Source: a virus
Strand: one strand, 5' to 3'
IMG/VR virus record: IMGVR_UViG_3300045120_000483
Location: 32,001 to 96,000 of that record
Length of the DNA: 64,000 nucleotides
Shown piece by piece: positions 49,207 through 62,589 of this stretch. A program made the translations under genes and the position numbers. Numbering within the stretch: the first letter of the stretch is position 1; each line of letters opens with the position of its first letter. Under the pieces are notes generated by a model. It saw only the letters and a program-made list of their open reading frames with translations, did no database searches and was not told the origin of the DNA.

Positions 49207-49569
49207 ATGCGTAATCAAATTAAATTAAAAGAATACAATCGACAACATTATTTGAAAATTCGGGTTTATCGTCGTGATGAAGTATTGGACCGTCAGCGTT
49301 TTATTAGAGGCAGAGTTAGGGAACTTAAAGTTGAACTTGGGTGTTCGCTTTGTGGATACAATAAATGTGCCAGGGCTCTCCAATTTCATCATTTAAGTGG
49401 AAAAGATGAAAATGTAGCAAGAATGGCGGCTCAAGGAAGATCGATGAAGAGAATTCTTGAAGAGATAGATAAGTGTGTTTGTGTATGTGCTAATTGTCAT
49501 GCTGAATTACATGATGAAAAAGAGAAAAATAAAGCTCCGAAAGCTAACTTAGTAGAAGCGCCAGTCTGA
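49207..49569 (+). CDS. HNH homing endonuclease within the tRNA cluster
   Basis: GC..CGY..C..ALQFHH..K..EI.KC...CANCHAE.H; 3' end overlaps tRNA-Phe. Confidence 0.85.
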   Translation: MRNQIKLKEYNRQHYLKIRVYRRDEVLDRQRFIRGRVRELKVELGCSLCGYNKCARALQFHHLSGKDENVARMAAQGRSMKRILEEIDKCVCVCANCHAELHDEKEKNKAPKANLVEAPV

Positions 49570-49609
49570 AGAATTGGATGAGTGGGGGCGGAACCTACAC
49601 GGGGCACCA
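49534..49609 (+). tRNA. tRNA-Phe(GAA), T-loop GGCGGAA
   Basis: Cloverleaf, loop CTGAAGA, CCA. Confidence 0.8.
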
Positions 49610-52087: not shown

Positions 52088-52163
52088 GCTTCACTAGCCC
52101 AGCGGTAGAGGCAGCAGATTTAAATCCTGTTAAGGCCGGGTCCGAATCCCGGGTGAAGCACCA
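52088..52163 (+). tRNA. tRNA-Leu(TAA), short variable loop
   Basis: Loop TTTAAAT, A73, CCA. Confidence 0.82.
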
Positions 52164-52169
52164 TTTAAT

Positions 52170-52245
52170 GGCTCTTTAGACAAACCGGCATAGTCGCTTC
52201 CCTCAAAAAGAAGAGTTCTGGATTCGAATTCCAGGAGAGCTACCA
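52170..52245 (+). tRNA. tRNA-Leu(CAA), short variable loop
   Basis: Loop CTCAAAA, CCA. Confidence 0.82.
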
Positions 52246-53076: not shown

Positions 53077-53151
53077 GCATCTTTAGCTCAGAGGAAGAGT
53101 GTCGCATCGACATTGCGAAGGTCCGGATATCGTAATTCCGAAGATGTACCA
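53077..53151 (+). tRNA. tRNA-Val(GAC)
   Basis: Loop TCGACAT, T-loop ATCGTAA, CCA. Confidence 0.82.
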
Positions 53152-54080: not shown

Positions 54081-54148
54081 TTAATTTCCCTCTCTAAATC
54101 AATATTTATCGCTTGACATTCCTTATAATATAAAGTATCATTATTGGA

Positions 54149-54706
54149 ATGAATAGAGATTTTACCAGAATCAACGATGCCTGTATGTACGCCGGTCTGG
54201 CCCATGCATCCATTGGGCAGGTACGTAAGTACAGTAAAGAGTCCTATATCGTTCATCCCATGCGGGTTTGCCGCCTTCTTGATGAAGTGGGGGAAACCGA
54301 TGATGTTCTTATTGGCGCTCTTCTTCATGATGTGGTAGAAGATACGCCGATTACGTTGGCGGAAATTCAGGCCAAATTTGGGATGGAAATTGCCAAATAT
54401 GTGGAAGGGATGACAGATGTCTCTAAACCTGAGGATGGTAACAGAGCCGTTCGTAAAACGATTGATAGGGAGCATTCTTGGGAAGCGTGTGGAGAATCCC
54501 AGACGATCAAGTGTGCGGACCTTATCGACAACACAGAGGACATTACTTCCCACGATAAAGATTTCTCTCAGGTTTACCTCCGGGAAAAGAGACTACTTCT
54601 TCCGGGTCTGACCAAAGCCAATCCAGCCCTTATTCAAAAGGCCTGGGAGACATTGGAAGCCGCTGAAATCAAAATTTTTGGAATTATTCAAGGAGAAAGA
54701 ACATGA
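54149..54706 (+). CDS. HD-domain small alarmone hydrolase (SpoT/Mesh1-like)
   Basis: AH..Q.RK...YIVHP, ALLHDVVEDT, IK.AD..DN. Confidence 0.88.
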   Translation: MNRDFTRINDACMYAGLAHASIGQVRKYSKESYIVHPMRVCRLLDEVGETDDVLIGALLHDVVEDTPITLAEIQAKFGMEIAKYVEGMTDVSKPEDGNRAVRKTIDREHSWEACGESQTIKCADLIDNTEDITSHDKDFSQVYLREKRLLLPGLTKANPALIQKAWETLEAAEIKIFGIIQGERT

Positions 54707-54933
54707 AGGTTGACGTGAAGGTGACTAGTGCGGGGAACGGCTCCCGGGCATATCCTAAAATTAGAAGGAGTATTGCCTACCAATACTTGGTTTGGTTCTC
54801 CACCCCTACAGTGGGGATAGTTGTATCCCAAGGTACGGGAACACAACTTCCCGGAAAATATTCAAATGATTGGGCCCCGGAGTGTTTTGAAGAGTGGACG
54901 GGAGAGGTCGTTTTAACGCTGACACAGGAGTAA
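54703..54933 (+). CDS. hypothetical protein (paralog family A)
   Basis: YP..YLVWF....GIVV..YS..W..F...G.V.L. Confidence 0.6.
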   Translation: MKVDVKVTSAGNGSRAYPKIRRSIAYQYLVWFSTPTVGIVVSQGTGTQLPGKYSNDWAPECFEEWTGEVVLTLTQE

Positions 54934-54936
54934 ATC

Positions 54937-55188
54937 ATGACATTGAGAGTCAAAGCTACAGAGGCCGAAGCTAAGAAAGCTGAGTTAGCGTTTCCCTGCC
55001 TGATGAGGTCCAAGAGCGATGGTTGGATTATGTTAGTTACGGGGGTAGAGAATAATATTGTTAGTGGTATGGTTGTTTCCGATCCTAATAAGTATTGGTC
55101 TTCTCCGATCTTGAGATATTCGAATCGAATGACCGCTATTTCGACTCTTGAACCCTGGGTTGGTAAGGTAGAGTTTATTTCAGAGTAA
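54937..55188 (+). CDS. hypothetical protein (paralog family A)
   Basis: FPCL..GMVV..YS..W.GKV. Confidence 0.6.
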   Translation: MTLRVKATEAEAKKAELAFPCLMRSKSDGWIMLVTGVENNIVSGMVVSDPNKYWSSPILRYSNRMTAISTLEPWVGKVEFISE

Positions 55189-55192
55189 GCCG

Positions 55193-55303
55193 GATGGTGG
55201 ACAGTGAGGATGCATTCCCTGAGTGGTCAAAAGGGCCGGTCTTTTAAACCGATGCGAAAGCTACGTGGGTTCGAATCCCCCTGCATCCTCACTGTCCATT
55301 ATC
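55193..55303 (+). ncRNA. tRNA-Lys(TTT)-like RNA with a class II body sealed in a 22-bp stem, no CCA
   Basis: Cloverleaf at 55208-55288 with loop CTTTTAA; flanks add 15 more base pairs to the acceptor stem. Confidence 0.75.
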
Positions 55304-56131
55304 ATATAATTTATAGAGGTCTTTGATTTTAAGACCGGTTTTGTTTTCTACATAACTGAAAACCTCCTGGAGGTCCGGTAGATAAAGAATTTGGATGGGT
55401 TCTGTTACTCCTGAAAGTTTAAAGTCATCAACGGGAGATTTGAAGCCTTTGATTTCGATTAATTTTCCGTTTACCCGAAAGTCTGGGTAAAAGTTATGTT
55501 CTCTTTGAGTTATAGGATTGAAGTATAGATAAGGGGCCTTGTTTCTAGTAATGGAAATTTGGTGTTCTGTGCAAAAAATATAGTAAGCTATTTCGTATGT
55601 GGAATTACAAAAAAATCCTTGATAGTATCCCTGTTTTCCTCTCCCCGCCCGGTGTCGAAAGCATCCAGGTTTTCCTTTTTTAGTTATGCTGATATTCTTC
55701 GCAGAAAGCGCCTTATTGCACTTAAGAGAACATGTCTTTAAACGTCGGTGTGTATATGGAAGAGGTACCTTGCATTCTTGACATATTGAGGGAGATTGCA
55801 AATAAAGCTTTTTTGTGATTAAAGATTTTTGTTGTCCTGATATTCTAGAAATTTCCGAAAGACGTTTTTTAGTTTCTGATGAATGTTGCCACCCGCTTTC
55901 TTCTCTCTTTTTCATATTAGCTTTAGCTCCACAAGATTTAGAACAATACCGATATAAGCGACTTTTGTAGGAAATAGGATTCTGACAAAATTCACAGATT
56001 TTTGGGTTTAAAGCGTATTTTTGTTGACTACGCTCAGAAAGCCTGATACCATGGCAAGTAGGAGAACAAATTTTACTTCGCGGGTCTTGAGGGGTAAAAG
56101 GGGCTGAACAAACAAGACAAGAAATTGTCAT
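55289..56131 (-). CDS. putative PD-(D/E)XK homing endonuclease with zinc-ribbon repeats
   Basis: CxxC..CS..C repeats; S.YE..FYPDF..IEIKG; late promoter at about 56170. Confidence 0.75.
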   Translation of the reverse strand: MTISCLVCSAPFTPQDPRSKICSPTCHGIRLSERSQQKYALNPKICEFCQNPISYKSRLYRYCSKSCGAKANMKKREESGWQHSSETKKRLSEISRISGQQKSLITKKLYLQSPSICQECKVPLPYTHRRLKTCSLKCNKALSAKNISITKKGKPGCFRHRAGRGKQGYYQGFFCNSTYEIAYYIFCTEHQISITRNKAPYLYFNPITQREHNFYPDFRVNGKLIEIKGFKSPVDDFKLSGVTEPIQILYLPDLQEVFSYVENKTGLKIKDLYKLYDNGQ

Positions 56132-56191
56132 TTCTAGAATTAACTCCGGAGTTGATAGGTTACAACTCTATTTATCTTCCAAAATATAGAT

Positions 56192-56268
56192 GGATCAATG
56201 GCTAGACTGGCAATGCAACGGACTCTTAATCCGTCCCCATGGGGGTTCGATTCCCCCTTGATCCTCCA
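56192..56268 (+). tRNA. tRNA-Lys(CTT)
   Basis: Loop CTCTTAA, TTCGATT, CCA. Confidence 0.88.
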
Positions 56269-56275
56269 AAATTAT

Positions 56276-56339
56276 GCGGAGTTCCGATCTGGAAGTAACA
56301 AGAACTAATAGGATTTATCCTGATTAGTCCTCCGCACCA
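56276..56339 (+). ncRNA. CCA-ended two-hairpin mini-RNA
   Basis: GCGGAG/CTCCGC+ACCA; hairpins TTCC/GGAA and ACTAAT..ATTAGT. Confidence 0.6.
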
Positions 56340-56344
56340 AGTTT

Positions 56345-56420
56345 ACCCGTAGATGCTGCTAGTTGTGGCAGAATGATTGTCAATCATTTGAGTGGAGGGC
56401 AGAACTCCATACGGGTGCCA
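56345..56420 (+). tRNA. tRNA-Asp(GTC), T-loop GGCAGAA
   Basis: Loop TTGTCAA, G73, CCA. Confidence 0.82.
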
Positions 56421-60027: not shown

Positions 60028-60103
60028 GGGCCTGTAGTGATAGAAGGTAGCATTCCGCACTTGCAATGCGGGGGACACGGGGCAGTACCGTGCTGGTCCA
60101 CCA
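60028..60103 (+). tRNA. tRNA-Ala(TGC), second copy, T-loop GGCAGTA
   Basis: G3-U70, loop CTTGCAA, CCA. Confidence 0.82.
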
Positions 60104-62510: not shown

Positions 62511-62589
62511 ACCCTTGTATGCCGCCACACTTCTAATGTGGAGAAAGCTAACTGGAAACATGCGGGTTCGAATCCTGCCAAGGGTGCCA
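62511..62589 (+). tRNA. tRNA-Arg(TCT) with absent or displaced D arm
   Basis: ACCCTTG/CAAGGGT+GCCA, CCACA CTTCTAA TGTGG, canonical T arm. Confidence 0.72.

Follow-up and report, generated by a model that had tools for sequence, protein, structure and literature searches.

The locus described here lies within a 64,000-nucleotide stretch of phage DNA (the window) that belongs to a 104.9-kb IMG/VR virus record of soil metagenome origin with a completeness of ~59% (CheckV). The phage carries T4-like replication genes, namely a family B polymerase, UvsW, a RecA-like protein, and gp46/47-like proteins. The 26 tRNAs called by ARAGORN in the record form a plus-strand array. One of them, with the anticodon UUU, has a long variable arm, encodes no CCA, and is enclosed by flanks that pair with each other. 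Upstream, on the same strand, are a gene for an alarmone-hydrolase-like protein and two small open reading frames (ORFs), and a nuclease-like ORF converges on the tRNA from the opposite strand (Table 1).

Close relatives of the locus or the phage are not found by blastn against the phage database or in IMG/VR searched with the HD protein and with the DNA polymerase, and the best match to the HD protein in JGI metagenomes is only 46% over 48 amino acids. A sequencing-run search for the locus returns one DNA run, the probable source soil metagenome, and no RNA run. A Logan contig from the source run matches 55257-56400 exactly and none spans 54600-55256, which leaves the left arm of the pairing without an independent assembly check. 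The contig starts inside the tRNA, and its start may mark a branch in the assembly graph that stems from strain variation or a repeat.

Table 1. Features at the long-armed tRNA(UUU) locus, in window coordinates.
Feature	Position	Strand	Basis
Promoter-like site, TTGACA-17-TATCAT, 11/12	54113..54141	+	consensus match only
185-aa HD-domain protein, small-alarmone-hydrolase-like	54149..54706	+	Pfam HD_4 1.5e-13
Two small ORFs, 76 and 83 aa, no family match	54703..55188	+	ORF list, profile searches
5' leader arm, GATGGTGGACAGTGA	55193..55207	+	sequence, inverted repeat, fold
Long-armed tRNA(UUU)	55208..55289	+	ARAGORN; Rfam; family model R1
3' trailer arm, TCACTGTCCATTATC	55289..55303	+	sequence; minus-strand ORF end
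280-aa ORF, zinc-ribbon repeats, PD-(D/E)xK-like core	55289..56131	-	alignment, profile, structure prediction
Terminator-like hairpin with T-rich tail, 15 nt after the locked stem	55318..55336	+	consensus match only
Class I tRNA-Lys(CUU), encodes CCA	56192..56268	+	ARAGORN; repeat comparison

The tRNA body is intact, with an ARAGORN call of tRNA-Lys(ttt) at 55208-55290 and a score of 37.8 bits on the Rfam tRNA model (RF00005), whose gathering score is 29. The acceptor stem, GGATGCA/TGCATCC, is accompanied by a class II-style D arm, an anticodon loop CTTTTAA (55241-55247, with the anticodon at 55243-55245), a T arm of GTGGG-TTCGAAT-CCCCC, and a discriminator T (U73) at 55289. The variable region (TGCGAAAGCTAC, 55253-55264) is 12 nt long and forms a GC-GAAA-GC hairpin, a short extra arm of a 2-bp stem and a GAAA loop, in place of the 4-5 nt variable loop of the class I body that is canonical for tRNA-Lys. 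The long variable arm on a Lys(UUU) loop, reported by the first-pass annotation, is confirmed. Two mismatches, C.A at 27:43 and U.C in the T stem, are found elsewhere in the family to which the gene belongs. The identities usual for class II tRNAs, Leu, Ser, and Tyr, do not fit the anticodon UUU and the discriminator U. Lysine identity appears to be the most economical reading, as GGAU...AUCC, U73, and the 3' strand of the T stem are common to the tRNA and the tRNA-Lys(CUU) of the same phage (repeat D2, 88% over 24 nt).

The gene had been described as a tRNA look-alike, a label that does not hold, since it belongs fully to a large family of long-armed tRNA(UUU) genes in phages. A pattern scan of IMG/VR finds at least 94 tRNA(UUU) genes of 82-94 nt, and a covariance model (R1) built from 83 long-armed phage tRNA(UUU) genes, with the present gene left out, scores it at 68.8 bits (E 1.5e-16), with the next match in the window at 49 bits. 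Family variable regions range from 11 to 21 nt and 71 of the 83 fold as hairpins of 2-6 bp, mostly with GNRA loops, of which GAAA is the commonest. Among the matches listed, 53 have A as discriminator, 18 have U, and 1 has G. Serine identity is unfit for the family because A or U predominates at this position, and leucine and tyrosine are unfit because of U73. The present copy shares with the family the GNRA-capped extra hairpin, A43 opposite C/G27, and the GUGGG T stem. It differs in carrying the minority discriminator U73 (18/72), in having no CCA within a CCA-encoding array, and in being the only member in the sample with paired flanks; among the matches listed, CCA is encoded by half of the family and such pairing is seen in no other member.

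Extra arms are not peculiar to lysine tRNAs. In phage arrays picked through an unrelated protein (loci L163-L242), long versions of at least 81 nt occur for Asn (7/32), Asp (5/33), Cys, Trp, Glu, Gln, and Pro tRNAs. Phage T5 is rejected as a further long-armed example, as its tRNA-Lys is class I. A full-text search of the literature, with most subscription journals outside its reach, returned no long-armed tRNA-Lys and no leader-trailer-paired phage pre-tRNAs.

Within its own array the gene is exceptional. All 25 other ARAGORN tRNAs of the record encode CCA, and the long-armed tRNA(UUU) alone does not, reading TCAC instead; the contrast drawn earlier for the window extends to the whole record. 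The same is true of the earlier remark that the window holds no normal Lys(UUU) gene, as the long-armed tRNA is the sole UUU tRNA and the sole AAA decoder in the ~59%-complete record. Most codon families are otherwise covered by the array, and AAA is heavily used, at 34 per 1000 codons in the long ORFs of the phage.

The flanks of the tRNA were said to extend its acceptor to 22 contiguous base pairs with two G-U pairs, and on this point the sequence, the inverted repeat, and RNAfold agree. GATGGTGGACAGTGA pairs with TCACTGTCCATTATC over 15 bp, two adjacent pairs being G-U, and the trailer arm starts at the discriminator. Acceptor and extension together make 22 contiguous bp, seen also as an inverted repeat of 22 nt with 91% complementarity. 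All 22 bp are present in the minimum-energy fold (-53.8 kcal/mol, z = -5.6), so the stem is an uninterrupted helix of the ~20 bp or more expected of an RNase III stem. The two arms are identical at 13 of 15 positions and differ at two adjacent ones. We refer to this leader-trailer pairing as the lock.

The plus strand folds better than the minus strand, which reaches only -49.4. The argument from G-U pairs that the plus-strand RNA is the selected form is weak, because both pairs are adjacent and may be one mutational event. A clean leader-trailer duplex is found on none of the other tRNAs of the genome, nor is such a stem found at its other ORF-to-tRNA junctions. A MITE-like repeat element was considered and rejected, as the 15-mer is not repeated in the window.

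The genes upstream appear to belong with the tRNA. The 185-aa protein matches only the hydrolase part of RelA/SpoT, at positions 5-89 of the 687 in the NCBIfam spoT_relA profile, and the second small ORF stops 4 nt before the 5' arm of the lock. The promoter-like site, the HD protein, the two small ORFs, the locked tRNA, and the terminator-like hairpin are probably one unit. When toxic alarmone synthetases pyrophosphorylate the CCA ends of tRNAs, some small alarmone hydrolases can undo the modification (bioRxiv 10.1101/2021.04.30.441581). The apparent pairing of an alarmone-hydrolase-like gene with a CCA-less tRNA would be notable in this light.

On the other side, the trailer arm does double duty. 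Read on the minus strand it is GAT AAT GGA CAG TGA, which supplies the nuclease ORF with its final four codons (D, N, G, Q) and its stop, and the stop codon overlaps the tRNA discriminator. The link to an adjacent endonuclease gene suspected at first is therefore real, in that the trailer arm coincides with the 3' end of the nuclease-like ORF. The 280-aa product has no Pfam, NCBIfam, or clear PHROG family. Weak profile matches point to T7 endonuclease I (E 0.013) and Bax1 (E 0.016), and an AlphaFold model with a mean pLDDT of 83.9 has weak top Foldseek matches that include the PD-(D/E)xK nucleases Bax1, TnsA, lambda exonuclease, RecU, and RecE (best E 0.019, none individually significant). The core motifs in the C-terminal part, P216-D217-F218 and E226-I227-K228 (PDF...EIKG), are invariant across the family of relatives. 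The conserved part stops at LYD/E and gives way to variable tails, which here is NGQ-stop.

Relatives of the nuclease ORF lie in tRNA arrays at 77 of 80 IMG/VR loci (L163-L242), beside different tRNAs and in both orientations, and the family is also present in Lak megaphages. They very often stop at or read into the next tRNA, frequently Asp or Glu. This sporadic, seemingly mobile placement suggests a family of homing-endonuclease-like proteins resident in phage tRNA arrays. The annotation of T5 has HNH genes overlapping tRNA genes, and the present arrangement resembles both these and SegB of T4/T6 (PMC13096335) in that a free-standing nuclease gene is wedged between tRNA genes and overlaps a tRNA end. 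It differs from them in that the ORF is neither GIY-YIG nor HNH, having zinc-ribbon repeats and a PD-(D/E)xK-like core, and in that it lies on the opposite strand. An upstream remnant of an inverted second copy of the nuclease gene was considered and rejected, because the frame that runs through the 5' arm is closed on its upstream side.

Locks are not confined to this phage. Among 2711 non-redundant phage tRNAs screened for at least 11 in-register pairs counted from -1:73, with at most one mismatch, 10 are locked, in eight contigs, and 7 of the 10 have 13-17 pairs. By estimate, chance would yield ~0.4 tRNAs with at least 11 pairs and ~0.07 with at least 13. The extension is not a chance pairing, because only these 10 of 2711 reach at least 11 pairs. 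The loci concerned (L053/L268 at G001:C1:21263-23458, L339, L170, L143, L223, L099, and L040) belong to unrelated phages. CCA is absent from 9 of the 10. The total helix length is 19-24 bp, which would lie near the minimum for an RNase III substrate. In all four uninterrupted cases of at least 13 bp within a first census of 1945 tRNAs (the window tRNA, Asp of L053, Asn of L170, and Gln of L143), the acceptor stem is followed by N73-C-A.

One case is a complete 310-kb phage, whose His, Asp, and Glu tRNAs are locked and without CCA while its 19 CCA-encoding tRNAs are unlocked; a fourth CCA-less call in this phage is a 95-nt Pro-like RNA under the Rfam threshold. The locked tRNAs of this phage sit in tight tRNA runs. 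All 10 locked tRNAs have a U35 anticodon (Lys, Asn, Asp, His, Glu, and Gln), against a background of 995 in 2711 (p ~4e-5 counted by tRNAs, ~3e-4 by contigs). This pattern was noticed after the fact, and only one further case, an Asn tRNA, came from a fresh independent sample of 774 tRNAs; the restriction to U35 is a lead rather than an established result. The leader-trailer lock is a rare, recurrent design in phage arrays, so far found only on tRNAs for NAN codons.

Phage tRNAs are now regarded as counter-measures to bacterial tRNA-cutting enzymes. The U35-anticodon group includes known targets of anticodon nucleases (PrrC, colicin E5, and zymocin). The targets of AriB, the nuclease of PARIS, are Lys, Thr, and Asn tRNAs. 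Its cleavage has been mapped to U36AAUCA41, with the cut just before A41; the change of U39 to A abolishes cleavage and that of A41 to C inhibits it, and the tRNA-Lys of T5, which reads U36AAACC41, is not cut (PMC12409363). The cleavage-site sequence is absent from the window tRNA, which also reads U36AAACC41. Both tRNAs have the anticodon arm core GGU-CUUUUAA-ACC with A39 and C41, and both are phage-encoded in arrays rich in endonuclease genes. The T5 tRNA differs in being class I (78 nt with CCA and a 5-nt variable loop), with A73, encoded CCA, and no pairing of its flanks. By this analogy the window tRNA looks like an AriB-resistant replacement rather than an AriB-like bait.

The reading that we favor, tentatively and at somewhat less than an even chance, is that the gene encodes a locked, CCA-less precursor of a working tRNA-Lys(UUU), which needs cleavage of the duplex or trailer and then CCA addition. 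The gene, the helix, the family membership, the recurrence of locks, and their restriction to U35 anticodons in the sample are observed; transcription, every processing step, and charging with lysine are what we infer. The tRNA would be the last gene of a short transcription unit comprising the promoter, the alarmone-hydrolase-like gene, the two small ORFs, the tRNA, and the terminator. The primary transcript would carry no CCA, and 15 bp of leader and trailer would stack on the acceptor as a 22-bp helix. This helix would first have to be opened or cut, whether by RNase III or by some other endonuclease that attacks the trailer. Maturation of the 5' end would then fall to RNase P and completion of the 3' end to the host CCA-adding enzyme, yielding a lysine tRNA whose anticodon arm is of a nuclease-resistant type. 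In the present copy, the trailer arm also serves as the last codons of the converging tRNA-array endonuclease gene.

That the RNA is a precursor gated by processing, one of two options raised by the first-pass annotation, is plausible, and it gains support because locked, CCA-less tRNAs recur in other phages. Parts of the route have parallels. The CCA-less tRNA genes of phage T4 are matured by host RNase BN and tRNA nucleotidyltransferase, and are likewise phage tRNAs that need CCA after transcription; to our knowledge, T4 tRNA precursors have no long leader-trailer duplex. In bacterial pre-rRNA, leader-trailer helices are cut by RNase III (PMC10250234), and there too the flanks pair and a helix of about two turns encloses the RNA. 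Here, a single tRNA is enclosed, acceptor stem and helix form one continuous duplex, and cleavage is only predicted.

Several observations weigh against a locked precursor. The lock is a one-off in the genome and is absent from the other long-armed tRNA(UUU) genes among the matches listed. The two adjacent differences between the arms fit a young duplication as well as they fit selection. Searches of the ~59%-complete record give no family match for RNase III, a CCA-adding enzyme, or class II LysRS. A duplex that spans the RNase P cleavage site should also be an obstacle to maturation.

The first two of these observations also count for a serious rival, though a somewhat unlikely one, in which the lock arose by accident, through an inverted duplication connected with the nuclease gene. 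Breakage or repair tied to this homing-type gene would have swapped the CCA trailer for an inverted copy of the leader, by template switching at the inverted repeat of the acceptor stem and joining at an ATC/GAT microhomology in the LYD codon. The helix would then be functionless and may impair the tRNA. Such an origin fits the exact coincidence of the 3' arm with the last four codons and stop of the nuclease ORF, in a family conserved only to LYD/E with variable tails beyond, whose members often read into the neighboring tRNA in both orientations. The near-identity of the arms looks young, and TCAC resembles TCCA minus one C, as compared with the 3' end of tRNA-Lys(CUU). However, most other locks have no nuclease ORF on either arm (three times at L053, and at L143, L040, and L339), and their clustering on CCA-less U35 tRNAs is not predicted by random mutation. 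The tRNA body is also undamaged, with the best family fit of any tRNA in the window, and the upstream side holds no remnant of a second nuclease copy.

A more ambitious form of the locked precursor, which we consider unlikely, holds that leader-trailer locking is a dedicated phage strategy for NAN-codon tRNAs, a reserve kept hidden or unmodified until processing releases it. The lock may then work together with the nuclease-resistant anticodon arm, the extra arm, and perhaps the apparently co-transcribed alarmone-hydrolase-like enzyme, which might clean tRNA 3' ends.

It is quite improbable that the helix acts mainly on the neighboring mRNAs with the tRNA as a passenger, whether as a 3' stabilizer or processing site for the hydrolase operon or as the structured 3' end of the nuclease mRNA. 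The upstream stop codon 4 nt before the stem, the terminator-like hairpin 15 nt after it, and the strong folding of both strands count for such a role, but the locked tRNAs of the 310-kb phage lie inside tight tRNA runs and not at mRNA ends, and no other ORF-to-tRNA junction in the genome has such a stem.

The least probable reading is the unchargeable decoy of the first-pass annotation, an RNA that stays locked and uncharged and soaks up or distracts PrrC or PARIS AriB: a sequestered acceptor end without CCA and the confinement of locks in the sample to U35 tRNAs, a group that includes nuclease targets, would suit it, but an AriB bait is disfavored because the anticodon arm is the AriB-resistant T5 form (U36AAUCA41 replaced by the uncut U36AAACC41, where U39-to-A alone abolishes cleavage), half of the family encodes CCA with no other member locked among the matches listed, and the tRNA is the sole decoder of a heavily used codon in an array that covers most codon families. 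A missing CCA alone does not block charging, as cells add CCA.

A regulated reserve of exactly the attacked tRNAs, kept as locked, CCA-less precursors, would add to the arms race over tRNA a layer at the level of maturation. It would also involve a pre-tRNA route in which duplex cleavage precedes RNase P and CCA addition, one for which we found no description in bacteria or phages. Should the lock be no more than the scar of an endonuclease-gene insertion, it would still show mobile nuclease genes remodeling the ends of tRNA genes.

The array has further irregularities. Two 76-nt tRNAs of class I size on the plus strand (52088-52163 and 52170-52245) have the leucine anticodons UAA and CAA, A73, and CCA, and they present the mirror image of the long-armed lysine tRNA. 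Rfam tRNA matches with no ARAGORN call lie on the plus strand at 53077-53148 (41 bits), 62511-62586 (37.7 bits), 60028-60100 (30 bits), and 49534-49606 (24.3 bits). Several array spacers are also closed by tRNA-like 3' ends in ...CCA, so that the 26 called tRNAs do not account for all tRNA-like RNAs of the array. Between the start of the nuclease gene and tRNA-Lys(CUU), TTTATCTTCCAAAAT at 56171-56185 (plus strand) is alike at 13 of 15 positions to the 3' end and trailer of that tRNA, and may be a displaced tRNA end or a chance likeness.
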